DNA of 46,266 bases, from NCBI GenBank assembly GCA_964498135.1, contig CAZCGG010000008.1:1-46266 (forward strand), read 5' to 3'. Below are positions 1,106 to 46,266 of this stretch, one piece after another. The translations under genes and the position numbers were made by a program. The first letter of the stretch is position 1, and each line of letters starts with the position of its first letter. The stretch is from an uncultured Candidatus Moduliflexus sp. Its GTDB lineage: Bacteria > Moduliflexota > Moduliflexia > Moduliflexales > Moduliflexaceae. The notes below the pieces were generated by a model. The model had not been told where the DNA came from. It worked only from the letters and a program-made list of their open reading frames with translations, and made no database searches.

Positions 1106-1966
1106 ATGAACACATCCGTAGAGTACTGTGGAATTTTCTTATGTATTTTGATACTGCTTGTTCCCTCAACTAGTATGCCAAGTGATTTAGCAATATCTCA
1201 GACATCAATGCCTGAAGAGGTTTCCCAGATTTTGAAGATGGCAAGGGAAACAGAAAATGAACAGGTATTGTCAACAGCCATGCATAAACTTGGTGAAATT
1301 GGTGATGAACAAGCAGCAATGGCGTTCATGGAGATTTTCAAGTCCAAGGTAGTTTCACTACGATTACGTCAGACTCAGTTTATTGCGATAGCATCACAAT
1401 TTCAATTAGAAAATAGCCGCGTGAAAGAAGAGTTGGTGTCGCTTTTACAAGAAATGCTCAAAAAAAATCCGGAACGATTGGATATAATTTTAATCACAGG
1501 CGCATTGGCAAAATATGGTGACAATCATTCAATGCAATATTTGCTGAATGAATACCAAAAATCGCAAACGATCTCTTCACAACAAGAAGAACATTTTCGA
1601 GATTATATTTTTGAAGAGTTATGTCAACTCAAGCAGATAGAAGCATCGCAATTTGTTCTGCAAGAAGTTCAAAAACGTCATGATGTTATGCTAACATTAT
1701 CTGCTATTAACCTGATGTCAGAAGCCAATAATCCCTATGCGCTGGAGATTGCCAGGAAATGTATTCACCTTGAAAGTGAGGAGTTTGATCTTATTGAAGC
1801 GCAACATTACTTGCGAGCGATTATTAAATTTGGAAATCTCAGCGATAAAGAGTATCTTGACCACCTCAGTAAAAAATCAGAAAAACTCTTTGGAATTGAG
1901 ACTGCAAAAGAGTTACATCCACTTCTTATGCAAGCATACGAAAGTATAAAAAATCGCAACCAATAG
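1106..1966 (+). CDS. Exported/membrane-anchored alpha-helical protein with PBS-lyase-type HEAT-like repeats; candidate immunity partner of the deacetylase module
   Basis: Strong SD (AGGAGG, then 7 nt, then ATG). Hydrophobic N-terminus (YCGIFLCILILLVPSTS). Repeated HEAT-like motifs (KLGEIGDEQAAMAF, ALAKYGDNHSMQYL). AT-rich and 12 nt downstream of the deacetylase stop. The ORF itself is solid; the immunity role is inference. Confidence 0.55.
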   Translation: MNTSVEYCGIFLCILILLVPSTSMPSDLAISQTSMPEEVSQILKMARETENEQVLSTAMHKLGEIGDEQAAMAFMEIFKSKVVSLRLRQTQFIAIASQFQLENSRVKEELVSLLQEMLKKNPERLDIILITGALAKYGDNHSMQYLLNEYQKSQTISSQQEEHFRDYIFEELCQLKQIEASQFVLQEVQKRHDVMLTLSAINLMSEANNPYALEIARKCIHLESEEFDLIEAQHYLRAIIKFGNLSDKEYLDHLSKKSEKLFGIETAKELHPLLMQAYESIKNRNQ

Positions 1967-2097
1967 TAGTTTCTCTATCAGCCATCCATCCATTTGGATA
2001 TTATTTCTTCTATATACGTGCCCAACCTCTTTCGCTGTCTTTTTTTCGGGACGCGCCGCCGCGTTTACCGTGAATATTCTGCCCTACTGGCTGCACC

Positions 2098-3483
2098 GTG
2101 ACCGCCGGGGATGGCGGCGTGGATGCCGTGGAAGCGGACGGCATCGCCTGCGCCGGCGGCATGGCGGCGGATAATCCGCTGTGTACGGAACAGTTCAAGA
2201 ACAGCGACGTTGCCGCGCTGAAGGTGGTGACGGATCCGGGCTATGAGTTTGCCTATTGGGAGATGAACGGGGGGATCATTCAGCAGGCAAGCGCCGAGCC
2301 GCTCTTTCTTTCGACGATGCCGCTCTTCGCTGGCCTTGCAGTCGTGCCAACGGACACGAAGACAGCGACGATACGCCCCTGTTGTCCATCGTTGTCCTTG
2401 CAATCGGTCACGTTTGCGGGGATGTCGGCGGAACTCCTTCAGGATGACGGGACGCCGTATCGCGCCACGCCGGACGCGCCGCACTGGCAGAAGACGGATG
2501 ATCCGTCCTATCGGCCGGCGCCGGTCGTGTTTGCGGCGGGCAGCCCGATCACCGTGACGGCGACATTCGCCGTCGAGCCAGCAGATTTTGCTGGGGACCT
2601 GTATATCACAGGCACGGGAACAGATGCTCAACATCCCTCGCATCTTGTGGCCTTGAATCCTCACAAGGCCACGCTGACGAACGGGATCGCGTCCGTGACC
2701 ATTTCCGCGGCAACGAAAAAACAAGTTGACATTTTTGACAAGATGCGCATTGACTGGGCATACGGGTTTGCGAAAAACGGCCAATTCAAACAGGTAACTG
2801 GTGTCAGCGAGCATCAGCTCTACATCACGCTTGCTGCCCCGTTGACGTCGCCAGTCTATCATACGCTGGCGCATCTTGGGTGTAAGAATGCCGCTGGCGA
2901 GATTGACGCATTGCCTTCGACCCTGCCGTCAGGCGAGGAGAAACGAGGCACCATTGCGGCGATTTGGGAAGAATTTCTGGATTTGAGGGTGGCGCGTGTC
3001 AGCACCAATACGCCCATGCAATATTGGGGGGCGTACTCCTCTCAAAACCTTAACCCGACTCCCCCTGATTTTTTTACCACAGCAGGCCTGCTTAAAAACG
3101 GAGATGGGCGTTGTTACGCCTGGGCCAATCTCTTTGTCGATATGCTGAACGCGCAGGGAATTGCGCAGGCTTCGGTAGAAATCATTCGAACCAAAGATTT
3201 CGTCTTTAACCAAAAATACTATCTGGGCGATAAATTTTGGGTCAACACCTTTCTTTCAGCTCAAGGCCCTAACAACGAACCTTATAACGGTCCATTCAAT
3301 CATGCGGTGGTTATGTTTGAAAATAGCTCGAACATATACGATCCCTCATACGGAAGATCGTATGCGAATCTGATGGCATGGGAGGATTTGACCGTGCTTG
3401 ATCTTGGGTATATTGATCAAAAGACAAATATCGGCTTTACAAATGCAAATACGATAGGAGATGAACAAACAGAAATACAATAA
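2098..3483 (+). CDS. Orphan cassette: B-repeat homology block + Ig-like middle + C-terminal transglutaminase/papain-fold Cys-His-Asp module
   Basis: The N-terminal ~130 aa are near-identical to the tail of the first gene (AGDGGVDAVEADGIACAGGMAADNPLCTEQFKNS...GYEFAYWEMNG). The C-terminus carries an ordered triad context: GDGRCYAWANLFVDMLNAQGI (Cys), FNHAVVMF (His), IYDPSYG (Asp). The ORF opens only at a GTG inside the homology block, with no signal peptide or SD of its own. Confidence 0.65.
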   Translation: MTAGDGGVDAVEADGIACAGGMAADNPLCTEQFKNSDVAALKVVTDPGYEFAYWEMNGGIIQQASAEPLFLSTMPLFAGLAVVPTDTKTATIRPCCPSLSLQSVTFAGMSAELLQDDGTPYRATPDAPHWQKTDDPSYRPAPVVFAAGSPITVTATFAVEPADFAGDLYITGTGTDAQHPSHLVALNPHKATLTNGIASVTISAATKKQVDIFDKMRIDWAYGFAKNGQFKQVTGVSEHQLYITLAAPLTSPVYHTLAHLGCKNAAGEIDALPSTLPSGEEKRGTIAAIWEEFLDLRVARVSTNTPMQYWGAYSSQNLNPTPPDFFTTAGLLKNGDGRCYAWANLFVDMLNAQGIAQASVEIIRTKDFVFNQKYYLGDKFWVNTFLSAQGPNNEPYNGPFNHAVVMFENSSNIYDPSYGRSYANLMAWEDLTVLDLGYIDQKTNIGFTNANTIGDEQTEIQ

Positions 3484-3528
3484 GAATGTGTTTCTGAACA
3501 CCTCTCTTATGCCTGAAAGGAGGATGCA

Positions 3529-4287
3529 ATGAAATCTTTGAGTCTTGTGATGTGTGCTGCTATGGTGTTAATAGGGGCTCTCGAGGGGGACGCCTGTAGG
3601 AAAGAGGAGACTAAAACGATTTTTTCAGAATCATTTCCGGAGTTATCTCTGGTAATGAGGTTGGCCGAACAGTGTGTTGAAAAGCCAGCACCCAAGAGGC
3701 TCGAGGGAAAGGGGGATGATGGTTGGGTGTCAGCGCTGTTGAAGAGAAACGCCCTGTCCGCCCAATTAGAAGAGGCGGACATCCCCATATGGACGACTTG
3801 GGCAATGGTGGATTTTCAGAGTTTTTTTTACAAACCGATGGATTCTATCTATATCTTAACGTTGATACGTGAGGGGAATGTAGAGACGGTTTGGACCAGA
3901 AGAATATTCGGTACTGATGCTCTCCCCAGTACCTGGCCGGTTCCTTTCTATGTCGGCGATGTCGTGCAGCAACAAAACACCGTGTGGGTCTTTTTTTGGA
4001 AGGAGCCGTATTATTATTTAGACAGACAAGAAAAACAGCATGGGGAATGGAACAAGACGGCCTCTCTGCGACTTGAGCGTCCATATGCGAATGAAACACA
4101 TGCGACAATTCTCGTTGATGGGGAACACGTTGGTGTCACGTTGATTCTGGAGAACGCCACCTATGAACCTCATTCCGCAACGCTCGCTGCTGGAGAACAG
4201 CCTGGCGTCAAATTGACATTGCAGGACGGAACGGAAGAATATTGGCGGCTTGAAGGCGAGCACTTGGTGAAAGAAGCGCAGAAGTAA
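3529..4287 (+). CDS. Secreted protein of unknown family; candidate immunity partner of the Cys-His-Asp module
   Basis: SD AGGAGG upstream of the ATG. N-terminal signal-like segment MKSLSLVMCAAMVLIGALEGDAC. Lies 45 nt downstream of the preceding gene and is followed by a clean terminator. I recognise no motifs. Confidence 0.55.
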   Translation: MKSLSLVMCAAMVLIGALEGDACRKEETKTIFSESFPELSLVMRLAEQCVEKPAPKRLEGKGDDGWVSALLKRNALSAQLEEADIPIWTTWAMVDFQSFFYKPMDSIYILTLIREGNVETVWTRRIFGTDALPSTWPVPFYVGDVVQQQNTVWVFFWKEPYYYLDRQEKQHGEWNKTASLRLERPYANETHATILVDGEHVGVTLILENATYEPHSATLAAGEQPGVKLTLQDGTEEYWRLEGEHLVKEAQK

Positions 4288-4313
4288 CCTAAAAACATCC
4301 ACATTTCATTGCA

Positions 4314-4338
4314 GGCGGGCCATTGGCCCGCCTTTTTT
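4314..4338 (+). terminator. Rho-independent terminator closing cassette 2
   Basis: GGCGGGCC / att / GGCCCGCC stem followed by a T6 run. Confidence 0.7.
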
Positions 4339-4363
4339 CGTGCCTGTTTTTTGACCTCATAAA

Positions 4364-4773
4364 GAACATCGTCCCCAGCGCGGGCTGCGCGGTCATCGCC
4401 GGGGATGTCGGCGTGGATGCCGTGGAAGCGGACGGCATTGCCTGCGCCGGCGGCATGGCGGCGGATAATCCGCTCTGCACCGAGCAATTCAAGAACAGCG
4501 ACGTTGCCGCGCTGAAAGTCGTGCCGGAGGCGGGCTATGAGTTTGTCTATTGGGAGATGAACGGGGGGATCATTCAGCAGGCGAGCGCCGAGCCGCTCTT
4601 TCTTTCAACCATGCCGCTCTTCGCGGGCCTTGTCGTCGTGCCGACCTCACGGGTCGCAACGATGACAGCGCGCTGCCTCTCCGTCACGCTGCAATCCGTC
4701 GCGTTTGCCGGCATGCCCGCCGACGTCGTGAAGGATGACGGGACGCCGTATCGCGCCATGCCGGACGCGCCGC
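4364..4773 (+). pseudogene. Third, truncated copy of the B-repeat homology block (orphan stub with no downstream toxin or partner module)
   Basis: About 410 nt track copy 2 (2098-2483) through ...DDGTPYRAMPDAP. The reading frame then runs into non-homologous low-complexity sequence. There is no credible start: the listed ORF 4323..5189 begins inside the preceding terminator. Confidence 0.6.
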
Positions 4774-5169
4774 TCTTAGGTGTCTCAATGCCAAAGGCAA
4801 AACCATGGAGGCCGAATGCGTCACGTCCTCATGTCTTTCCCTGTCCTGCGCCATCTTATTCCATTTTCCCGAAACAATTCTCTTGCCAATTTTTTTGCGC
4901 TGAAATAAGAGAACGTTGTCATTGTTGCGTTGTTGGAGAGTGGTCTTATGAACGAACTCGCATCTTCATGGTTCGACTCCACGCCATGACCGGTCATCCT
5001 AAGCCAAGTCGAGAGATGCGTTGGCCAATCAGTTTGATTTCTGCCACTCTCCCGTTTCGGAGAGCATTTTCCCCACATTTCAACCAATGCAGGTGTTCTG
5101 AGGTGAGTTGCGCCACCCTCGTTTCTTTTCGAAACGCAACATCATCTATGGAATTTCCTCGGTCGCCTT

Positions 5170-14167: not shown

Positions 14168-15754
14168 ATGATGGAAGAAAAGGATTTGTTAACAATCAGT
14201 GAGGCAAGCAAATGGGCGACTGACTATATCAAAAAGAAAGTAACAACCTCAAATATTTCTTACCTTATTCAATATGGACGAGTGACTAAGTATGGCGATA
14301 ACGGAAATGCGAAAGTTTCCAAACAAGAATTAATGACTTATTACCATACATTTATAGGTAAACGTGAAATCAATTGGAAAGCCGAATTAGGTGAAGATAT
14401 TAATTGGGCATTATCTTTTGATTCTTTAAAAGAAGCCGATACGACAAAACATGTGCATAGACTTCATCCGTATAAAGGAAAATTTATTCCTCAACTTGTT
14501 CAATATTTTATAGATGACCATACCGACGAATTTAAAAAAGACATGTATTTCAAGACTGGAGATATACTGTTAGACCCATTCTGCGGAAGCGGGACGACCT
14601 TAGTTCAAGCAAATGAACAGGGAATGCATGCTCTTGGAATTGATATATCTGAGTTTAATGCTCTTATTAGTAATATTAAAATAGAGAAGCATCATCTTCT
14701 TGATATTCAAAAGGAAATTGTCGAGATTACATCTCACCTGAAACGCTTCATTAGTCAATCGAATATTGTCGAATTTGAAGCACATTTAACTGAAGAATTG
14801 AATAAATTCAATAGTTTATATTTTCCATCGCCTGAATTCAAATTCAAGGTCAGACGAGGACAAATTGATCAAAATCGCTATGGAAAGGAATACGAAGAAA
14901 AATTTCTTTTGCGCTATTTCCAGATAGTGAATCAATACAATATTATATTACGTCAAGACAAATTAGAAACATTTTTAGATAAATGGTATTTATCCAATGT
15001 CAGGAAAGAAATAGATTTTGTTCTTGAATGTATAAAAAAGATAGGCGCTCCAGAAATTAAACGAGTGATTCAAATTATTTTAAGCCGTACTATTCGATCT
15101 TGCCGAGCGACAACACACGCGGATTTAGCTACATTACTTGAACCGATAACAACAACATATTATTGCGCTAAACATGGCAAAATTTGCAGGCCATTATTTT
15201 CAATTCTTAGCTGGTGGGAACGATATAGTCAGGATACCCTGCAACGATTAGCCAATTTCGATAAATTAAGGACAAACACATTTCAATATTGCATAACAGG
15301 AGATTCTCGTAAAATTGATATTATCTCCATATTGGAGCAAGAATTTCCTGCCCTTGCTCAACTTGCGCAATCTCAAAAAATTCAAGGTATTTTTTCAAGC
15401 CCTCCGTATGTCGGATTGATTGATTATCATGAGCAGCATGCGTATGCGTATGAATTGTTTGGTTTTCAAAGACATGATGAATTTGAGATCGGGTCCATGC
15501 TGAAAGGACAAGGCAAAGATGCGCGAGAAGCGTATGCTCAAGGGATTGCGGATGTATTGAATAATTGCAAACAATTCTTAGCTCCAAACTATCATGTGTT
15601 TTTAGTGGCAAATGATAAATATAATCTCTATCCGACGATTGCCGAAAAAGCCGAAATGCAAATTGTGAATCAGTATAAGCGTCCGGTATTGAATCGCACC
15701 GAAAAAGATAAAGCGGCATATTCGGAAACGATTTTTCATTTAAACGCCAAATAA
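14168..15754 (+). CDS. DNA methyltransferase (N6-adenine or N4-cytosine type) with N-terminal HTH
   Basis: AdoMet motif LDPFCGSGTTLVQA near residue 135. Catalytic IFSSPPYVGL near residue 400, with a ~260-aa putative target-recognition region between them. N-terminal LLTISEASKWA...ISYLIQYGRV looks like a MerR/excisionase-type HTH. A sample line counted by hand is about 28% G+C. Confidence 0.8.
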   Translation: MMEEKDLLTISEASKWATDYIKKKVTTSNISYLIQYGRVTKYGDNGNAKVSKQELMTYYHTFIGKREINWKAELGEDINWALSFDSLKEADTTKHVHRLHPYKGKFIPQLVQYFIDDHTDEFKKDMYFKTGDILLDPFCGSGTTLVQANEQGMHALGIDISEFNALISNIKIEKHHLLDIQKEIVEITSHLKRFISQSNIVEFEAHLTEELNKFNSLYFPSPEFKFKVRRGQIDQNRYGKEYEEKFLLRYFQIVNQYNIILRQDKLETFLDKWYLSNVRKEIDFVLECIKKIGAPEIKRVIQIILSRTIRSCRATTHADLATLLEPITTTYYCAKHGKICRPLFSILSWWERYSQDTLQRLANFDKLRTNTFQYCITGDSRKIDIISILEQEFPALAQLAQSQKIQGIFSSPPYVGLIDYHEQHAYAYELFGFQRHDEFEIGSMLKGQGKDAREAYAQGIADVLNNCKQFLAPNYHVFLVANDKYNLYPTIAEKAEMQIVNQYKRPVLNRTEKDKAAYSETIFHLNAK

Positions 15755-15767
15755 AAAGGATGGAATC

Positions 15768-16547
15768 ATGGCATTATCCAGTACGCAAATTTTCTCTATA
15801 GAAAGAACAATTAAAGAAAGTTTAAGAAATAAATTTCAGCGTTATAAGCCAGAATCTCAAAACATGCCATTTCATTATCGGCTATTAGGGAAAGATCGAA
15901 TGGCTCTTTATTCGTTTCTCCAATCGTTAAATACCACGTTTGGAACATCTATTTTTGAGCCTGTCGCAGTAACATTAGCTCAAACACATTTCATCAATGC
16001 CAAAGCACAATATGTTGCTGGAAATGAAATTAGCGAACAGGCTCAAAAAGTTATTCAGGAAATTATCAATCAACTCACAACAGGCCAAGATAGCCATAAA
16101 AATGAAGAAATTGAACGTATTAGAGCAGTCTGTCAACAAGGTCGAATGAATAGATTGAAAACGGTAAAAATAGATTTATTGGTTGAAGATTCTGCGGGTG
16201 CTTTATTTTTATTCGATTTAAAAACTGCTAAACCCAATATGAGTGATTTTAAGATTTTAAAACGAAATTTATTAGAATGGTGCGCGATTATGTTAGCGAA
16301 AAATCCTACTATAGACATTCATTCTCTTATTGCAATTCCTTATAATCCTTATGAGCCAAAACCTTATGAACGTTGGACATTAAAGGGAATGCTTGATTTA
16401 AACGAAGAGTTGAAAGTTGCTCAAGAATTTTGGAATTTTCTTGGCGGAGATGGCGCGTATGAAGAGTTGCTTAATTGTTTTGAAAGAGTTGGCATTGAAT
16501 TACGCACAGAAATTGACCGATATTTTGAAAAATTTAAAACGGCGTAA
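15768..16547 (+). CDS. Type II restriction endonuclease, TdeIII-like (family assignment from memory)
   Basis: Sits 13 nt downstream of the methyltransferase, on the same strand and in the same AT-rich composition. PFHYRLLG...TTFGTSIFE and D-x-K-type FLFDLKTAKPN agree with what I recall of the RE_TdeIII family. SD AAGGA. Confidence 0.6.
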   Translation: MALSSTQIFSIERTIKESLRNKFQRYKPESQNMPFHYRLLGKDRMALYSFLQSLNTTFGTSIFEPVAVTLAQTHFINAKAQYVAGNEISEQAQKVIQEIINQLTTGQDSHKNEEIERIRAVCQQGRMNRLKTVKIDLLVEDSAGALFLFDLKTAKPNMSDFKILKRNLLEWCAIMLAKNPTIDIHSLIAIPYNPYEPKPYERWTLKGMLDLNEELKVAQEFWNFLGGDGAYEELLNCFERVGIELRTEIDRYFEKFKTA

Positions 16548-27665: not shown

Positions 27666-28139
27666 ATGTTTCAAATCTATCTTGACACATCAGTGATCTC
27701 GGCATATTTTGATTTTCATAAACCGATCCGACAATTGATCACGCAAAAATGGTTTGAATATAATGCCCAAGAGTATCAGTTATTTGCATCAAGCGTGGTG
27801 TTAGAGGAAATCCATAAGAATACCGATCAAATCTTGTTAGTCAAGATGTTACAACTTCTTGATGAATATGTGGTATCAATTCTTGAAGTCAATGAGGAGA
27901 TTACTCGACTTGCAGAACAATATCGTTCCCAAATCCTACCACAGGAAATAAACGATACGCTTCATCTCGCGATTGCGTCATACGCTCAACTTGATGCGAT
28001 TGTTTCGTGGAATTTTCGGCATATCGTGAATTTAAAAACTATGAAAATCATTCAAGAAATCAATAGACAACAAAACTATCCCGAAATTCAAATTCTCACG
28101 CTTGAACAGATCGGAGGGGCACAATATGGCAGTCTATAA
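27666..28139 (+). CDS. PIN-domain ribonuclease-like protein (VapC-like toxin candidate)
   Basis: Acidic residues sit at PIN positions: IYLDTSV (Asp7), VVLEEIH, EINDTLHLAIA, VSWNFRHI. 157 aa, AT-rich. Confidence 0.75.
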   Translation: MFQIYLDTSVISAYFDFHKPIRQLITQKWFEYNAQEYQLFASSVVLEEIHKNTDQILLVKMLQLLDEYVVSILEVNEEITRLAEQYRSQILPQEINDTLHLAIASYAQLDAIVSWNFRHIVNLKTMKIIQEINRQQNYPEIQILTLEQIGGAQYGSL

Positions 28140-38869: not shown

Positions 38870-40459
38870 CTACATTCCCCAAACCGTCACGGTTGTTTCG
38901 TGATAATTTTCCTGACGGCAAAAGATTTTCTCCGCCCAACTGACATGTTTCCGCCGGTCGAAAATGACAAGATGCCCTTCGTTTGCGCCGCAGCGATCCA
39001 TATATTGCCACGTCTGCGCCACGCCACTGCGAATCGTTTCGTCTAAATCGCCGTACCGGATTTTCAACTCGATGACGACATGCTGAACGCCGCTACGATG
39101 CGGCCAAATCGCCAATAAATCCGTGCGTTTCATGCCCAAGCCGTACTCGCGCTCAATGCGCCCGCCGCCGTTGATAATCCGCGAGAGAAACGCCTGCATC
39201 AGCAATTGCGGCCCGGCTTCTTTGTATTGAAACCGCTCGCCCCAGCTTTCCGAATGCTTGCGGAAAAATTCTTGAAACGCCGCCATCAATTTCGGCATAT
39301 CGAGTTGGCCGTCATTCGGGCGAATGTACCATTGCGGCTGCTCGCTGATCGTCAATTGCGTCACATACGTCAACTCGCGGGGAATCACTTCCTGATAGAG
39401 CCGGTTGGCGATGCGCACCTGCCCTTCGGTTTTGATTAAGCCCAAATCGCGGACATAGCTGAGATCGTCGGGCGGATAATCTTCCGGCGCGTCAATGCCG
39501 CTCAAAATCGGCTCGATGACGCGGCGGACGCGCTCTTCCTGCAATTTATCCGCTAACTGGTCAAGATGAGTTTCGCGGCGGGCGATAATCCGCTCTTTCG
39601 CCGCGTGAACCATCTCGGCGGTAATCGAGTTCGCGCGGTTGCGCCCTTCCGGCATTTCGAAACAGACTTCATATCCGAGCGCGTTTACCAGCCAGGGCTG
39701 TCCTTCGCTGAACGCCCACACGCAATCAAGGGCTTTCGAATCAAACGTCTGCCCGGTTTCGGCGGTATGACAGCGATATAATTCCGTGATTTCTTCCCGG
39801 ACGAAATCGCCTAATCGCAGCGATTTCGCTTTGATGTTGAACGCGCTGCCGCCCGTAATCACCGTTTTTTCTTGGCTGGAATGAATCCGATAATCCCGCA
39901 CGTCGCGCACGCCGCAGAGAATCACGCTTTGCGGAAACAGCGCGGGGCGTCCGGCATAGCCGCTGCGCAATTGGCGAAGCAGCGAAATCAGCGTGTCGCC
40001 GATGAGCGCGTCCACTTCGTCAATCAACAACACAAACGGCTTCGGCGACGCCTTTGCCCATTCGCTCAACGTTTTTTGAAAGGCGTTGAATTCCCCGTCA
40101 TGTTCAAGAATCTCCTTCCAATGTTCGCGGACGAAGTGATCATGCAGATAGTTTTCGGCTTTATCCGCCAATTCCGACAACACCGAGCGGATGCCGGCCT
40201 TGACGTTTTCGCGGGCAGCCTGCGCGTTTTCGATGTTCATGTACAAACAGGCGTAAGTTCCCTGCTGATTCAAATAGTCCATCAACGCCAGCAGGCAGGA
40301 CGTTTTGCCGGTTTGACGCGGCGCGTGCAGAACAAAATATTTTTTCTGCGCGATCAAATCCAGCATTTCCGAGAGGTTGATGCGCTGTAATGGCGGCAAA
40401 CAGTAATGATCCTTGCAGTTCACCGGCCCTGCGGTATTAAAAAAGCGTTCGTGCGTCAT
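38870..40459 (-). CDS. ORC/AAA-ATPase-like domain fused to a C-terminal PD-(D/E)XK nuclease-like domain (paralog 1)
   Basis: FFNTAGPVNCKDHYCLPPL lead-in, Walker A HAPRQTGKTS, Walker B FVLLIDEVDAL, and C-terminal KRTDLLAIW...VVIELKIRYG (D...ExK). The start was set at MTHERFF (40459) because the listed extension is repeat-derived. Confidence 0.75.
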   Translation of the reverse strand: MTHERFFNTAGPVNCKDHYCLPPLQRINLSEMLDLIAQKKYFVLHAPRQTGKTSCLLALMDYLNQQGTYACLYMNIENAQAARENVKAGIRSVLSELADKAENYLHDHFVREHWKEILEHDGEFNAFQKTLSEWAKASPKPFVLLIDEVDALIGDTLISLLRQLRSGYAGRPALFPQSVILCGVRDVRDYRIHSSQEKTVITGGSAFNIKAKSLRLGDFVREEITELYRCHTAETGQTFDSKALDCVWAFSEGQPWLVNALGYEVCFEMPEGRNRANSITAEMVHAAKERIIARRETHLDQLADKLQEERVRRVIEPILSGIDAPEDYPPDDLSYVRDLGLIKTEGQVRIANRLYQEVIPRELTYVTQLTISEQPQWYIRPNDGQLDMPKLMAAFQEFFRKHSESWGERFQYKEAGPQLLMQAFLSRIINGGGRIEREYGLGMKRTDLLAIWPHRSGVQHVVIELKIRYGDLDETIRSGVAQTWQYMDRCGANEGHLVIFDRRKHVSWAEKIFCRQENYHETTVTVWGM

Positions 40460-40468
40460 AAGTGGTTT

Positions 40469-40528
40469 CCGTTCGCCCTGAGCGTGTCGAAGGGCAGTTT
40501 TGTGGTTCGACACGCTCACCACGAACGG
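40469..40528. repeat. Core-only copy of the CCGTTCGCCCTGAGC.TGTCGAAGGG hairpin repeat
   Basis: CCGTTCGCCCTGAGCGTGTCGAAGGGC, then 9 nt, then GTTCGACACGCTCACCACGAACGG. Its right arm supplies the last codons and the stop of the STAND gene. Confidence 0.65.
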
Positions 40529-43497
40529 CGCGCGGTTAGATGGCTTTCGATCCGTTCAATCACAGGCATCTGCGGGCTGCCGTCACCGGGTTCGCGCTCG
40601 CGGGCGAGACGTTCGGCCTCAAGCAACGGGATGTTTTCAGGAATCGGGGAAATGGTATCCGGGCGCGGCTGACCGACATCATTCGCGCCGGTTTGCCAGA
40701 AGGCTTTGAGCCGGCGCAGCGTATTTCGCCCGTCCTCGCCGCGCTGCAAGCAGAACGGAATCAACGGCTGATACGGCGTCGGAATGTTGTCGCCGAACAG
40801 GATTTCGTCTAAGCAGAAACGATTGTAGCGAAGCGCATAGATCAATGCCTGCTGATAAAAATCGAAGGCGGCGTCCGGCTCTTCCTGCCAGAGCAGATGG
40901 CCTTGCAGCAGGTGGAGCGCGGCAATATGCTCGTTGTATTCGTATTGCTGCGCTAAGGCTTCGGCCTCGGCGATGAAGGCGGGAATGTCGGACAGCTTGC
41001 CTTGCGCATATTTGACCCGCGCCATGCCGACGAGGGCTTCACATTCAAAATTTCGTCGAGATGTCCAACGATATTCCTCTAATACTTCGCAGTAATACTG
41101 TTCCGCTTTATCGTAATTATGGCGGATTTCTTCTAATTCTCCCAACCAAATTAAAATTTCAGGAATACCGCAACCATGTTGATTTTCTTGCTTGATCTTT
41201 AAGCTTTTTGTGAGAAACTCATCAGCATCATTAAGAAGGTTTTGGTTGATCCGAATTTTTCCTTGAAATCCTAAAAACTGAGCTATGTCACTCAATACTG
41301 CTCTATGTGTTTCGCAAAACTGTTGCCATACTAAAAAAGCTGCTGTTGATTGTGAATATTTTTTTTGAAATCCAGCAATAAGACCTAATCCTCCCGAAAT
41401 TTGAGCGACATTATTATCATCCCCAATCTGATGTATATATTCTAGAGCCTCTCTACTTGATAATTCTGCTTCTCTATATCTTCCGCTCCAAATAAGCGCC
41501 CATAATGAACCTCCTTTGAAGCGAAGTCCCAAAAGTTTATTATCTGACGCAGACTGAAGCTTTTCAAGTCCTTGATTATAATAATATATAGATTCTTTCC
41601 AGTAACCAAAAATACCATAAAAAGATTTTAAATGTCTATAGGTAATAAGAAGACTATAGTTATCATCTCGCTTCTCTGCCCATTCCTGTAACAGTTGAGT
41701 ATATAATATCCTTTTTTCTACATTCTGCTTGCCAACATAATATATCCATGAAAGGAACGGTAAAATAGACCCTACTTTAATGTCATTCGGGGGAAGTAAT
41801 TTATAACTTTCTTCTAACATTTGGATTGCTTTATCTACTTCATTCGTTTGATACCCTTTTAAATCTAACCAAAATTCTCCAAGATCACATAACGAATATG
41901 CTCGTAAAGAGATTTCTGCCTGCTGGTTCTGGATAATCTTTTCATAACTCATAGCAGCAATTTCTAAATTTGATTCTATCCGAGCTATCTTTCCTTGATA
42001 ATACTCCCGCCATAAGCGGCTATTTTCCTGTTCCAATGGATACGTGCTGACATCGCTCAACAACGTTTTGAGCCGATTGACCATACAGTAGCGAGTCAAC
42101 TCTTCGGCGGTCGCTTGAAACAACTGGATGCCGGTTTCTTCGTTTGCCCGAACGCGATGATATAGCCGTTCCAAGCCGAACAACTCCTGTTCCGTCAGGC
42201 TCGCTTGCGGCATGGCCTGTTCGAAATAGGCGGCGGCGCGTTCGTGCCACTGTTTATGCCGCGCCGGATCGTGAATTTTCAGGTTTTCGTCCAGCACGTC
42301 TCGCACCACGTCATGCAGCGCCAATTTCCCTTCGCGCACCGGGCGCGTGAACGGAAACTGCCGCAATTCCTTGAAATCCGCCGCCGGAATCTCCGTTTCC
42401 AACACCGCCCGCAACACGGACAGATCGAACCAGCGCAGCGCCGCCGCCGCTTCAACGAGGCGTTCAATCGTTTTCGGCACGGATTCCAGCAGGCGATCCA
42501 CCAAATCCGCCGCGACTTGCGCTTTGATGGTCTGGAAATCGGTGTGATCGTATGCCGCCCACAGCCGCGCCGCCGTCGTCGCCACGAGCGGCAAGCCCCG
42601 CGAAAATTTCACGACCGCCTCCACTTGCGCCGGGTCCGGTGTCGCGCCGCGCATGGCCTGATAATAGCGGCTGATCACGTCGCGCAGATGTTCATCTTCC
42701 ATCGGGCGCAATTCCTCGAACCGCGCCTGCATGAGGCAGCCCGGCCAATCGCGCTCCCACGCTTCGCCGCGAAAGCTGCGCGTGGCGATGACGAACAAGA
42801 TATTCCCATGCGCCGCCCGCGCCAATTCGCGCACCCAATCATCTAACGTTCCGATTTGCTCGTAGGTGTCGAACATCAGCGTCACGCGCTTTTTGGCGGC
42901 GGTTTTGGCGAGGTCGGTCACAAACTGCTGCGTCAGGAGTTTGAGCGGATTGAGATAAAAATCCACGTCCGGCTTATTCAAAAAGCCGAACAGCCAATCG
43001 GTCAACGCTTCCGCGCTCATGCCGCCCACGACGCTGCCCAATGGGCCTAAGACGGCGCTCGCGGCGGTTTCCAGCGCGGCCTTCGCGCTCGCTTTGCCCG
43101 CGTTCGCAAGCTTGCTCTGCCCCGCCCGCAGCTTTTCCTCAACTTTGGCCTGAATCGCCTGATAACGCTGGAACGCCACGCTGAATTCCGGCAGTTTGAC
43201 GCCGCTTTTGCCTAATTCATCGGACAAGCCGGTCAGCATTTCGACGCCGGTTTTGGCTTCGTCCACGCTGACGAATCCGACCGGAATCGCCTGCTTTTTG
43301 CAAAACAAACGGAACATTTTCAGCAGCGTGGATTTGCCGCCGCCACCGACGCCGTGAATAATCAGCAGGCGTTTCGGCAGATTTGGCGCGGTCACAAATT
43401 CTTCGAACAATTGCCGCAAATGCTCGGTGTTGGTGAATAAGGCTTCTAAGGCCGTTTCTTCGGCAGTCAATTGATATGCGCGCTTGCCAAACAACAT
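40516..43497 (-). CDS. STAND-class P-loop NTPase with long C-terminal TPR array (993 aa); no recognisable N-terminal effector domain
   Basis: Walker A IIHGVGGGGKSTLL about 50 aa from the proposed start MLFGKRAY. Walker B VTLMFDTYEQ. Then a helical/winged-helix region followed by more than 450 aa of TPR-like repeats. The listed N-terminal 25 aa (MNRRDAEVAEKNIFLRSPRL...) are translated from a palindromic repeat. Confidence 0.8.
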   Translation of the reverse strand: MLFGKRAYQLTAEETALEALFTNTEHLRQLFEEFVTAPNLPKRLLIIHGVGGGGKSTLLKMFRLFCKKQAIPVGFVSVDEAKTGVEMLTGLSDELGKSGVKLPEFSVAFQRYQAIQAKVEEKLRAGQSKLANAGKASAKAALETAASAVLGPLGSVVGGMSAEALTDWLFGFLNKPDVDFYLNPLKLLTQQFVTDLAKTAAKKRVTLMFDTYEQIGTLDDWVRELARAAHGNILFVIATRSFRGEAWERDWPGCLMQARFEELRPMEDEHLRDVISRYYQAMRGATPDPAQVEAVVKFSRGLPLVATTAARLWAAYDHTDFQTIKAQVAADLVDRLLESVPKTIERLVEAAAALRWFDLSVLRAVLETEIPAADFKELRQFPFTRPVREGKLALHDVVRDVLDENLKIHDPARHKQWHERAAAYFEQAMPQASLTEQELFGLERLYHRVRANEETGIQLFQATAEELTRYCMVNRLKTLLSDVSTYPLEQENSRLWREYYQGKIARIESNLEIAAMSYEKIIQNQQAEISLRAYSLCDLGEFWLDLKGYQTNEVDKAIQMLEESYKLLPPNDIKVGSILPFLSWIYYVGKQNVEKRILYTQLLQEWAEKRDDNYSLLITYRHLKSFYGIFGYWKESIYYYNQGLEKLQSASDNKLLGLRFKGGSLWALIWSGRYREAELSSREALEYIHQIGDDNNVAQISGGLGLIAGFQKKYSQSTAAFLVWQQFCETHRAVLSDIAQFLGFQGKIRINQNLLNDADEFLTKSLKIKQENQHGCGIPEILIWLGELEEIRHNYDKAEQYYCEVLEEYRWTSRRNFECEALVGMARVKYAQGKLSDIPAFIAEAEALAQQYEYNEHIAALHLLQGHLLWQEEPDAAFDFYQQALIYALRYNRFCLDEILFGDNIPTPYQPLIPFCLQRGEDGRNTLRRLKAFWQTGANDVGQPRPDTISPIPENIPLLEAERLAREREPGDGSPQMPVIERIESHLTARRSW

Positions 43498-43507
43498 AAT
43501 TTTTACA

Positions 43508-43567
43508 CCGCAGAGACGCGGAGAACGCAGAAAAATGTTTTTCTCCGCGACCTCCGCGTCTCGGCGG
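43508..43567. repeat. Palindromic intergenic repeat (GAGACGCGGAG type)
   Basis: CCGCAGAGACGCGGAG ... CTCCGCGTCTCGGCGG with an inner stem GCGGAGAA / TTCTCCGC. Confidence 0.55.
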
Positions 43568-43656
43568 TTCAATTACAGATGACAAAAACCATCGCACCTA
43601 CCTGAATGAACAACGCATTGACAGCGAGGGAAAAATTTTTCAAGGGAAATCGCATT

Positions 43657-44478
43657 TCAGCGATATTTTTCAGCGAGTTGCCGGTACGCCGCCGCGTCTG
43701 CCGGTTTATCGCGTTTGGCGCAGCCTTGCGCCATGATGTCGCATTTGCGCCGCAGTTCATCCGCCGCCTGCTGACGCTGTTCTGCCGTCAAGCCGCCCGC
43801 TTGCAGGAGCTTTTCGAGCGACTGAATCCGAAAGCGATCCAGCCCCCAATGCGTCCGCGAGAGTTGATCATCATGCCCGCCGCGCTTGATAATCAGGGGC
43901 GTTTCGATGAAATGCACCGGGTGGGTTTTGGTGATGCGCAGCCACAAATCATAATCTTCGCAGGCGGGCAGGGCTTCATCGAAATAGCCGACTTCATCGA
44001 ATATCGCGCGGCGAATCAGCGCGGACGACGGGCTGATGACGCAGAACGGCAGGCAATGCGGGAAAATATAGCCGCCGTGCTTCTGGTGCTTTTTCATCTG
44101 ATTGACGCGGACGCCGCGCCGAATCCAGATTTCTTCGGTATGGCAGAGCGGAATGTGCGGCTGCGCCTCCATGACGGCGATTTGCGCGGCAAGCTTTTTC
44201 GGCAGCCAGAGATCATCGGAATCGAGCAGCGCGATATAGCGGCCTTGCGCGGCGCGGATGCCCGCGTTCCGCGCGCTGCTGACGCCGCAATTTGCCTGAA
44301 AAATCGGGCGGAGGCGCGCGCCGTAGCCGTCCAGCACATCGCGGGTGCGATCCGTCGAGCCATCGTCAATCACGAGAAGCTCAACATCACGAAAGGTTTG
44401 CGCGAGGACGGACTCAATCGCCTCTTTGAGAAAATCGGCGCGGTTATAGGTCGGAATGATCACGCTGACGGTCGGCAA
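43657..44478 (-). CDS. Glycosyltransferase family 2
   Basis: VSVIIPTYNRADFL, LLVIDDGSTD, LDSDDLW, CEDYDLWLR. TTG start with SD AGGGGTG at 8 nt. Only 5 nt downstream of the preceding ATPase-nuclease gene. Confidence 0.85.
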   Translation of the reverse strand: MPTVSVIIPTYNRADFLKEAIESVLAQTFRDVELLVIDDGSTDRTRDVLDGYGARLRPIFQANCGVSSARNAGIRAAQGRYIALLDSDDLWLPKKLAAQIAVMEAQPHIPLCHTEEIWIRRGVRVNQMKKHQKHGGYIFPHCLPFCVISPSSALIRRAIFDEVGYFDEALPACEDYDLWLRITKTHPVHFIETPLIIKRGGHDDQLSRTHWGLDRFRIQSLEKLLQAGGLTAEQRQQAADELRRKCDIMAQGCAKRDKPADAAAYRQLAEKYR

Positions 44479-44483
44479 TTTGA

Positions 44484-46073
44484 TTACACCCCTGTTGCCA
44501 CAAAGACCGGCATGACGGTCACGCCCGTCTCATCGTCGAGAACCGGCGTCTCGAATTTATGACGATGTTCGTCGCTGATCGCCTCAATGAAAAACAGCAG
44601 CGTGATCTCTTGCAAGCGCAGTTGTTTGCCATACTGCGCGGCCTGTTTCACGGCATTCCGATATTCCGCCACGTCCGCGAACGTTTTCAGTTCAATGCCG
44701 TACATCTGCCCGCGATAGGTGATAATCAGGTCTATTTTGCCGTTGCCCGTCGGAAATTCCGGCCAGACGTTCGCGCCTTTGCCGCGCAAAAATTGATGTA
44801 AGTATAGGTAAAGATTGAAGTGATACACCGCCTCATAAATCCGCAAATCGGCGCGGCGCGGCGCATCCTGAAACAGCCAGCGGCTATTCTGCGTCAAATA
44901 TGCCTGATACCGCGCTAATAACGGCAGCAGACATAATGCATTTTCCGTAAAAATATCGGAGAGATCATCGAACGGATCGCTCATCCGTCCGATGTCATGA
45001 AACAATTCATCTGCAAAATAATTGAACAGCCGTTTTTGCACGAACGGGCAGAAAAATTTGACGTAACTCTGGGTCGGACTGACTTTATCGAGATCGATCA
45101 CACCGTTGAAATAAAGATAGTTTGTCGGCGGAAAATCGTATGCAAACGACGTTTTCCGATCAGTATCGAACAGACGCAGCACGAAATCTCGATACGGTCG
45201 CTGCTTGGCCTTGCTCAAAATATTCAAAATTGTGTTGTTGGGAAGCACGTTAATGGCTTCGGCATACACTTCATCGAATTTCGCCCGTGTAATCGGTTCG
45301 GGAAAGTTCTGGTTATACGTTTCAGTCAACAATTCGCCGAGCCAACCAATCAACCCCGGATGCCCATTCGTTTCGACAAACAGCCGCATAATCACGTCCG
45401 GCGCGATGGTTTGACCGCTTTCGCGCTGATACCAGTCGAACATGCCCTTCACTTCGTCAAAGGTAAGATTGGGAATGCGGACGCTGCGCTGAACGTTGAA
45501 CGGCGAGCCGGTCGTATTTTCGATGCCCAGCACGCTGCGGATGCCGATCAACGCGAGGCCGTGCAGCAGATACGTTTTTTCGGAGGATGGTTTCGCCTCG
45601 CTTTTTCGAGAAAGATAGAGATTCCGGCATTCGCTCGCAAATTTGCTGATGAATGATTCCTCTAAGGCGTCAAATTCATCAATAATCAAAATAAGCGGTT
45701 TTGACAAATACGTTCGAGTGAACAATTTGGGGAAATCATCCCACGTAATTCGTTCAGGGAAATTTCGATCCGAAAAATAGCGCAGTTCCCGCAGAAGAAT
45801 GTAAAGAATGGTTTCATGATTTTGCTCATATTTTGCGCTTTCGGCAGAAATCATGATGACATCGAATTCCGCGCTCTGCCGCAGACGTTTCACGACCTCC
45901 AGCATTGTCCACGTCTTTCCGGTTTGGCGCGGCGCCCAAATTGTCATGTAATGCCCGCCCTCATCAACCGGATCGCCGAGCAACTGCCGCATGGCGAAAT
46001 CAACCAGCGCCTCGCGCGGCGCGTAATATTCGGAGGCAGTCGAAACCGGGCCATACGAAGAAAATTTGCGCAT
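44484..46073 (-). CDS. ORC/AAA-ATPase-like domain fused to a C-terminal PD-(D/E)XK nuclease-like domain (paralog 2)
   Basis: Walker A WAPRQTGKTW, Walker B LILIIDEFDAL, and C-terminal GNGKIDLIITYRGQMYGIELKTF (D...ExK). The start was set at MRKFSSYGPV (46073). Confidence 0.75.
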   Translation of the reverse strand: MRKFSSYGPVSTASEYYAPREALVDFAMRQLLGDPVDEGGHYMTIWAPRQTGKTWTMLEVVKRLRQSAEFDVIMISAESAKYEQNHETILYILLRELRYFSDRNFPERITWDDFPKLFTRTYLSKPLILIIDEFDALEESFISKFASECRNLYLSRKSEAKPSSEKTYLLHGLALIGIRSVLGIENTTGSPFNVQRSVRIPNLTFDEVKGMFDWYQRESGQTIAPDVIMRLFVETNGHPGLIGWLGELLTETYNQNFPEPITRAKFDEVYAEAINVLPNNTILNILSKAKQRPYRDFVLRLFDTDRKTSFAYDFPPTNYLYFNGVIDLDKVSPTQSYVKFFCPFVQKRLFNYFADELFHDIGRMSDPFDDLSDIFTENALCLLPLLARYQAYLTQNSRWLFQDAPRRADLRIYEAVYHFNLYLYLHQFLRGKGANVWPEFPTGNGKIDLIITYRGQMYGIELKTFADVAEYRNAVKQAAQYGKQLRLQEITLLFFIEAISDEHRHKFETPVLDDETGVTVMPVFVATGV

Positions 46074-46120
46074 ATTGAATCGCCGCCGCCAAACACGCCG
46101 AACGTGTCTGGCGCGGCGCA

Positions 46121-46266
46121 TTATTGCATCAACTTTTTGACGCGAGCGATGATTTCCTTCATTTCCGCGCCGCTCACGGAATTGGCAATGCCAAACGCCG
46201 CGCCGTTCGCCGCGTCCATGATGCCCGCCGACACGACGCGGAGAATCGAATCCGCGTATTGATTAT
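46121..46266 (-). CDS. 3' end of an unidentified gene continuing beyond the window
   Basis: The reverse strand reads ...NQYADSILRVVSAGIMDAANGAAFGIANSVSGAEMKEIIARVKKLMQ*, with the stop at 46121-46123. Too short to assign a family. Confidence 0.3.
   Translation of the reverse strand, partial: NQYADSILRVVSAGIMDAANGAAFGIANSVSGAEMKEIIARVKKLMQ

Follow-up and report, generated by a model that had tools for sequence, protein, structure and literature searches.

The subject of this analysis is a gene on the contig CAZCGG010000008.1 of an uncultured Candidatus Moduliflexus sp., of which a stretch of 46,266 nucleotides (hereafter the window) was analyzed. The encoded protein is an NLR-like STAND ATPase from an uncharacterized Chloroflexota family, and about 1 kb of AT-rich DNA lies inside the otherwise GC-rich coding sequence. 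With a probability of roughly 0.75, we consider this segment (residues 500–820) to be a recombining, hypervariable allelic TPR cassette that is exchanged as a whole and presumably serves as the sensor of the protein. The cassette has defined borders, its alleles are hypervariable with saturated synonymous divergence, and an AT-rich trough with the same borders recurs across the family. Exchange is seen in both directions, since one backbone occurs with different cassettes and one cassette occurs on different backbones. The parts of the gene are the following (GC3 denotes the G+C content at third codon positions).

40516–43497, minus strand: STAND NTPase-TPR gene, 993 codons plus stop, recognized by Walker motifs, an AlphaFold2 (AF2) model, and PDB fold matches
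42319–43497, minus strand: NTPase core and helical arm, residues 1 to ~393, conserved (92–100% amino acid identity among five syntenic alleles)
42001–42318, minus strand: first, conserved part of the TPR solenoid, residues ~394–499, ending in NSRLWREYY; N-side recombination anchor
41038–42000, minus strand: hypervariable AT-rich TPR cassette, residues 500–820, with low GC3 and divergent alleles; presumed ligand-sensing surface
40519–41037, minus strand: conserved C-terminal TPRs and tail, residues 821–993, starting with ALVGMARVKYAQ; C-side recombination anchor

The open reading frame (ORF) of the STAND gene spans 40516–43572 on the minus strand, and its likely start methionine at 43497 gives a protein of 993 amino acids. 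The original prediction had placed the AT-rich block at residues 496–819, followed by a GC-rich remainder of the last ~175 codons, and these numbers fit a minus-strand ORF started at 43497. Upstream of this position, the frame stays open to 43572, where the extension overlies a hairpin repeat that accounts for erroneously extended N-termini of some called genes (P0004, 1053 amino acids). Both 200-nucleotide G+C windows and the G+C content by codon position confirmed that ~1 kb of AT-rich DNA lies at about 41040–42010 inside one uninterrupted ORF. G+C was 0.305–0.37 across 41100–41999 versus 0.51–0.65 on both sides, and the block 41040–42010 (971 nucleotides) contained 34.7% G+C compared with a mean of 52.5% for the whole window. 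Equally low values were found in 1.9% of the 971-nucleotide windows, those other than the block all lying inside whole AT-rich accessory genes. The G+C contents at the first, second, and third codon positions (GC1/GC2/GC3) were 46/32/25 in the block, 62/41/72 in the N-terminal part (residues 1–495), and 67/42/71 in the C-terminal part, with more exact GC3 values of 24.6 in the block, 72.1 before it, and 71.1 after it. Within the block, the gene frame holds no stop codon, while the other five frames hold 14–30, and the chance of 323 open codons at this composition is ~1e-12; the block is therefore a coding sequence under selection. An assembly chimera was ruled out, since the gene (2982 nucleotides) is 100% identical at the nucleotide level in five independent assemblies, made from different samples with different assemblers, and since four wastewater runs contained 99–100% of the sampled words of flank and block alike.

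The window gene and four syntenic orthologs from other wastewater assemblies form our focal set of five alleles. The four orthologs are ~79% identical overall and occupy the same locus, whose flanking genes are 94–97% identical at the nucleotide level, and all four carry an AT-rich block at the same codons (GC3 of 14–34 in the block versus ~70–80 elsewhere). The alignment bore out the expectation that the block would be variable while the NTPase and the C-terminus stay conserved: amino acid identity was 92–100% in residues 1–450 and mostly 70–100% after residue 820, as opposed to 28–59% within the block, and whole-block identity between alleles amounted to 43–53% for amino acids and 52–75% for nucleotides. 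The alleles are nevertheless collinear, homologous TPR arrays of the same length apart from 1-residue indels, and their TPR core residues are conserved. Identity and GC3 change together, at residues ~497–507 on the N side and at 820/821 on the C side, in both cases within 10 codons. Mean pairwise nucleotide identity is 75–89% up to residue 496 and then drops to 61% and 52%. Between bins 811–820 and 821–830 GC3 rises from 14 to 82 and nucleotide identity from 74 to 93%. The borders read ...NSRLWREYY / cassette / ALVGMARVKY..., and the conserved residues E818 and C819 close the cassette directly before ALVGMARVKYAQ.

Synonymous divergence follows the same partition. By the method of Nei and Gojobori (NG86), the flank (residues 1–490) showed synonymous divergence (dS) of 0.15–0.27 with a ratio of nonsynonymous to synonymous divergence (dN/dS) of ~0.1, whereas the block showed a saturated dS of 0.98–1.85, dN of 0.36–0.50, and dN/dS of 0.2–0.45. 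Because dS in the block is saturated, the alleles must be far older than the surrounding genes, and faster protein evolution alone does not suffice. This bears on the explanation that the block evolved rapidly in situ, without recombination, by positive selection or relaxed constraint acting on the TPR surface alone, with AT-rich codons simply following an amino acid content rich in Lys, Asn, Ile, Tyr, and Phe. The parallel fall of GC1 and GC2 (46/32 versus 62/41) and the variability of residues other than the invariant structural TPR positions would agree with such a process. We nonetheless judge it quite improbable, as protein-level selection cannot produce a saturated synonymous divergence 5–10 times that of the flanks, GC3 drops by 47 points, and identical blocks occur on backbones that are only 77–85% identical N-terminally. 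Furthermore, amino acid conservation is fairly high over the final ~40 residues of the block, where GC3 is still 14–34, which indicates that the composition follows the DNA segment and not the variability of the protein.

The alleles proved to be discrete and stable. No nucleotide difference was found among five assemblies of the focal allele, nor among three assemblies of another allele. In four other wastewater metagenomes with contigs at least 85% alike that covered both flanks, contig depth over 41100–41900 was zero or near zero. Libraries of wastewater labeled as RNA contained flank fragments of related alleles and no focal block, which is too slight a basis to speak of expression, and a contig from one such library diverges at 41046. 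A profile search of metagenome contigs returned distant relatives only (26–30% identity) and no further close alleles. This stability speaks against the idea that the block is a target of hypermutation by a diversity-generating retroelement (DGR) or another mutator, such as a deaminase: each allele is 100% identical across independent samples, which rules out ongoing mutagenesis, and the variable tract of ~960 nucleotides greatly exceeds the variable regions of DGRs, which are far shorter. An AT-biased mutator would account for the composition, and in multicellular bacteria, Chloroflexi among them, putative sensors belonging to conflict systems are known targets of DGRs (PMC10907252, PMC7159879). 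However, no reverse transcriptase was present among the genes called within 10 kb on either side, a blastn comparison of the block with the window found the block itself only and thus no template repeat or silent copy, and no tandem repeats were detected within the block. Taken together, hypermutation is scarcely credible here.

The same partition was found across the family. Among 120 family proteins, 97 pairs were at least 90% identical in their N-terminal parts, and 86 of them were less than 50% identical in the block, as exemplified by P0009 and P0037, with identities of 98% (N-terminal), 25% (block), and 96% (C-terminal). Eight pairs showed the opposite pattern, the block exceeding the N-terminal part in identity by 10 points or more, and two of them were examined at the DNA level. 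In P0044/P0067, which come from different samples, residues ~440–810 are 97–100% identical in nucleotides, while the N-terminal part is a mosaic of 49–98% identity. In P0013/P0023, also from different samples, the block is 98–100% identical and the flanks 39–97%, with breakpoints at ~480–500 and ~817–837. Both pairs represent recent transfers of a cassette between GC-rich backbones, and in each of them both partners carry an AT-rich cassette. This evidence for one cassette on different backbones comes from family lineages other than the focal one.

A mosaic of this type might also arise by exchange between paralogs, if ectopic gene conversion homogenized the N- and C-terminal parts while each copy kept its own sensor; the pattern would then stem from flanks evolving in concert and not from cassettes passing from strain to strain. 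Tandem paralogs do occur in two metagenome-assembled genomes (MAGs), at 1887–4895 and 4980–7991 in L016 and at 1909–4977 and 5019–8033 in L022, and two other MAGs contain a further partial match on another contig. It is mostly in the block that the tandem copies differ from each other; those in L016 are 76% identical N-terminally, 25% in the block, and 89% C-terminally. On the other hand, the five focal alleles occupy one syntenic locus in different strains, no second copy was found in the window or in the examined stretches of related contigs, and the diverged backbones that carry near-identical blocks were recovered from different samples. Paralog exchange is thus an unlikely explanation of the focal locus, although conversion may play a part in other branches of the family and does not conflict with a recombining allelic cassette.

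The AT-rich trough itself is widespread. In 10 GC-rich family members, mean GC3 was 54–83 outside and 34–46 inside residues 501–820, and in the bins where GC3 changed, amino acid conservation fell from 73 to 33% and recovered from 23 to 84%; members from low-GC hosts showed no GC3 dip. The five focal alleles, 43–53% identical to each other, are at most 37% identical to any other family block, and being mutually closer than to other blocks, they form a lineage-specific pool and are not distant imports. These data are difficult to reconcile with a single horizontal insertion, in which foreign AT-rich DNA from a low-GC donor would have replaced the sensor region in this genome or in its immediate ancestor. 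What speaks for such an event is that the GC3 of the block (24.6) equals that of accessory genes in the window, that is a restriction-modification pair (24–29) and genes for a PIN-domain (36) and a HEAT-repeat protein (33). But all four orthologs carry different AT-rich blocks at the same codons, a trough with the same borders exists in unrelated GC-rich Chloroflexota, AT-rich blocks move between two GC-rich backbones, and a protein search with the block alone yielded no donor, its four matches being weak or partial and its sensitivity doubtful, as the protein itself was not listed. A single insertion is accordingly very improbable. For the same reasons, the part of the original prediction that read the composition as foreign, in the sense of imported DNA, found no support: the arrays are collinear and of equal length, the focal alleles are closest to each other, and the trough is present in unrelated GC-rich Chloroflexota, so that the cassette belongs permanently to the family architecture as an old and homologous element. 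The original prediction had also named as evidence against itself an AT-rich block shared by unrelated GC-rich genomes together with a congruent phylogeny over the whole gene; the former was found and the latter was not. Its proposal that a sensor region is replaced by recombination stands as far as recombination is concerned, given the hypervariable block, the conserved NTPase and C-terminus, and the same block on diverged backbones, while the term sensor remains presumptive.

Regarding the protein, the Walker A motif GVGGGGKS is located at residues 49–56 and the Walker B motif VTLMFD at residues 205–210, with G49, G52, G54, K55, and D210 invariant among 30 family members. The AF2 model, built with 30 homologs (pLDDT 83.7), consists of an alpha/beta NTPase, a helical arm, and helical hairpins that run continuously over residues ~393–904, and the block forms the well-predicted middle of this hairpin array (pLDDT mostly ~90, range 74–98). 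The top Foldseek matches in the PDB were 6mfv_A, a "STAND protein with TPR" (E 1.4e-8), and MalT (8bob_C, E 1e-5), their low TM-scores (0.2–0.4) being due to the flexibility of the solenoid. Pfam matches were all below threshold, namely TPR_MalT (39 bits, cutoff 45), TPR_12, nSTAND_NTPase5 (19.1, cutoff 34), and AAA_22 (17.5, cutoff 27); no curated STAND or AAA profile matched the window protein above its own cutoff, while precomputed matches to PF25199, PF13191, or PF05729 exist for some relatives. No LuxR/GerE or helix-turn-helix domain was matched in the window protein by Pfam. The C-terminal 173 residues have no sequence match in the PDB, and this module contains many invariant family columns. 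Its tail (40519–40790, residues ~905–993), for which neither Pfam nor a PDB sequence search gave a match, ranks with the best-conserved regions of the family proteins and includes the near-invariant stretch PRPDTISPIPE..IPLLEAERxAREREPGDG. It might be an output or docking module of these effector-less proteins.

The family comprises 322 clusters at 50% identity (E up to 1e-30), and its named or placed relatives are all Chloroflexota MAGs, with the exception of a few bins labeled otherwise; it was through these relatives alone that the host was assigned to Chloroflexota. Most members are ~1000 residues long and have no effector domain. Longer ones (P0175, P0162, P0149, P0219, and P0152) carry N-terminal fusions that precede the same NTPase-TPR body: a CHAT protease, PRTase-CE, an alpha/beta-hydrolase (DUF676-like), or an extra NACHT/NPHP3_N NTPase. 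The TPR region acts as the sensor in MalT and Avs proteins, and it is this precedent, along with the effector-type fusions in relatives, that leads us to regard the cassette as the putative ligand-sensing surface. The same repertoire of fusions has been reported from multicellular bacteria for their NLR-like conflict systems (PMC7159879).

According to the cassette model, many very old and mutually diverged versions would be kept in the population, and whole versions would be swapped between strains or lineages by homologous recombination with endpoints in the conserved flanking sequences. The cassette would bind a ligand, a role suggested by comparison with MalT, Avs, and further STAND-TPR proteins. 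Ligand binding would trigger NTP-dependent oligomerization. Frequency-dependent or diversifying selection imposed by variable targets may maintain the diversity, the candidates being proteins of phages or of other invaders, as well as non-self recognition in filaments. Several observations weigh against this model or some part of it: (i) the sensor function of the block is argued from other STAND-TPR proteins only, and no experimental or database link of the family to defense was found; (ii) PADLOC reported only a generic "TPR" at 27 bits, and no NCBIfam match came near its cutoff; (iii) the window protein has no effector domain recognizable with Pfam; (iv) no recurrent partner gene was found across 23 loci, tandem paralogs aside; (v) the block has dN/dS values below 1, albeit with a saturated dS, and these do not demonstrate positive selection; (vi) two GC-rich members deviate from the family pattern, with a small GC3 dip in L020 and none in L026; and (vii) only five full alleles were available for the focal lineage.

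The system was then compared with known ones. It resembles MalT/PH0952-type STAND-TPR ATPases in its best structural matches (6mfv_A and 8bob_C) and its sub-cutoff TPR_MalT match but, unlike MalT, it lacks a LuxR/GerE DNA-binding domain; these regulators are not known to have hypervariable sensors. Among mosaic genes, a hypervariable central cassette, often of lower G+C content, is found in the central domain of the flagellin gene fliC, the target-recognition domains of type I restriction-modification HsdS, and O-antigen loci. The STAND gene shares with them conserved homology arms, old discrete alleles exchanged as units, and a G+C content below that of the host core, and it differs in encoding a cytoplasmic NTPase-TPR receptor and in having trough borders that are constant across a phylum-wide family. 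With Avs and with the "novel STAND" NTPases from conflict systems of multicellular bacteria (Kaur et al. 2020, PMC7159879), it has in common the P-loop STAND NTPase with a long TPR array, the fold match to STAND-TPR/MalT, weak nSTAND_NTPase5 matches, a variable repeat region, and relatives fused to effector-type domains (CHAT, PRTase-CE, and hydrolase). In contrast to Avs, the window protein matches no PADLOC or NCBIfam defense model, has no effector domain and no known anti-phage activity, and its variable part is internal, sharply bounded, and placed before a strongly conserved C-terminal module, with a GC3 drop of ~45 points. Plant and fungal NLRs, such as the HIC genes of Podospora (PMC13449251), likewise combine a STAND core with a repeat sensor and show signatures of balancing selection or trans-species polymorphism, and the Podospora NLR genes have a lower G+C content than random genes and AT-biased mutations resembling repeat-induced point mutation (PMC13449251). 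While fungal HIC sensors are shuffled from near-identical repeats, the STAND block has no internal nucleotide repeat, its repeat number is fixed, and its alleles differ throughout. Finally, in DGR-diversified sensors (PMC10907252), too, a presumed antigen sensor on conflict-type NTPase systems of multicellular bacteria is diversified, but in the present case no reverse transcriptase or template repeat was found, the tract is 1 kb long, the alleles are stable, and the fold is TPR and not C-type lectin. The gene belongs to a known kind, the hypervariable NLR-like STAND sensor, and is notable for its cassette-like borders, documented exchange, and family-wide GC trough.

As to why the cassette is AT-rich, its GC3 is roughly independent of the host across the family. 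With saturated synonymous divergence accumulated in a GC-rich lineage, amelioration would be expected; since none is seen, a different substitution regime probably operates inside the cassette. The low G+C content would mark an evolutionary regime of its own, which the cassette has in common with the accessory genes of this genome, in which AT-rich DNA marks such genes. In the window, these are an island at 14168–16547 (G+C 34–35%, GC3 24–29), which carries the genes of an N6/N4 DNA methyltransferase and of a TdeIII-type restriction endonuclease and is directly followed by a GC-rich ABC ATPase gene, and two further whole genes, one for a HEAT-repeat protein at 1106–1966 (GC3 33) and one for a PIN-domain protein at 27666–28139 (GC3 36). 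Candidate causes of the trough are the lack of GC-biased gene conversion, a weaker efficacy of selection for GC, an AT-rich mobile pool, and selection for AT. Our working hypothesis is that forces which raise G+C, i.e., GC-biased heteroduplex repair and weak selection for GC, are inactive inside alleles too diverged to pair. The trough could then be a steady state near an AT-rich mutational equilibrium (GC3 of ~25–45%), reached regardless of a host GC3 of up to ~80%, a proposal that we advance tentatively and hold to be more doubtful than likely; a dedicated AT-biased diversification process acting on the cassette is an alternative. Polarization of singletons gave an equilibrium GC3 of ~0.54 for the flank, whereas the value for the block was discarded, because its 17:1 excess of changes from A/T to G/C is what saturation and AT-rich composition alone would give. 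No clear GC3 spike, as expected for hot spots of GC-biased gene conversion, was visible at the cassette borders of the focal alleles or the 10 GC-rich members. In a subfamily with a more slowly evolving block (L067/L068), the dip is shallow (6–10 points), the hosts having only ~50% G+C.

Sigma-70-like promoter matches were also concentrated in the AT-rich block, with 11 of the 14 matches in 40300–43700 lying at 41100–42000, on both strands, while dinucleotide-preserving shuffles of the whole region gave 3.4 matches on average. They are probably a by-product of composition, but could give rise to intragenic or antisense transcription.

The STAND gene is bordered by two hairpin repeats.

40469–40528, no strand assigned: hairpin repeat of high copy number, GAGCGTGTCGAA...TTCGACACGCTC, which overlaps the gene at its 3' end
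43507–43572, no strand assigned: second hairpin repeat GAGACGCGGAG...CTCCGCGTCTC, located shortly before the start codon

In four metagenomes, the depth of the downstream repeat was 119–379 versus ~3–9 for the gene, with many loose ends at 40468 and 40528, and a depth so far above that of the gene identifies it as an intergenic repeat of high copy number. Run X6 contains one contig in which 40495 is joined to 43507, with only 27 nucleotides on its short side; such a junction bypasses the gene and would delete it. Two AAA_35-type NTPase genes (38870–40459 and 44484–46121) flank the STAND gene in the window and in the ortholog locus L002. The other three ortholog loci (L001, L003, and L004) lack both and have a PDDEXK_3 gene downstream instead, so the content of the locus varies between strains. 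The AAA_35 gene at 44484–46121 (minus strand, 545 residues) has a hypervariable block of its own at residues ~240–407 (44900–45400), which is 54–75% identical in nucleotides to the L002 ortholog versus 95–99% for the rest of the gene. Its G+C dip is milder (41–50%), and the mosaic pattern is the same as in the STAND gene.

These findings define a medium-sized family of NLR-like STAND proteins in Chloroflexota that lies outside the coverage of defense databases and provides a bacterial counterpart to the hypervariable NLR sensors of plants and fungi. As the cassette is clean and swappable and its borders are known, its specificity can be tested through allele swaps. Moreover, the contrast in GC3 of ~45 points within a single gene follows the recombination borders and recurs in unrelated hosts, and it thus offers an unusually controlled setting for asking why hypervariable and accessory DNA is AT-rich and what keeps core genomes GC-rich. 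If the steady-state explanation is true, the family would represent a natural experiment, replicated in many hosts, on the maintenance of high G+C content in bacteria, because cassette and backbone share the same transcript, strand, expression, and replication context.

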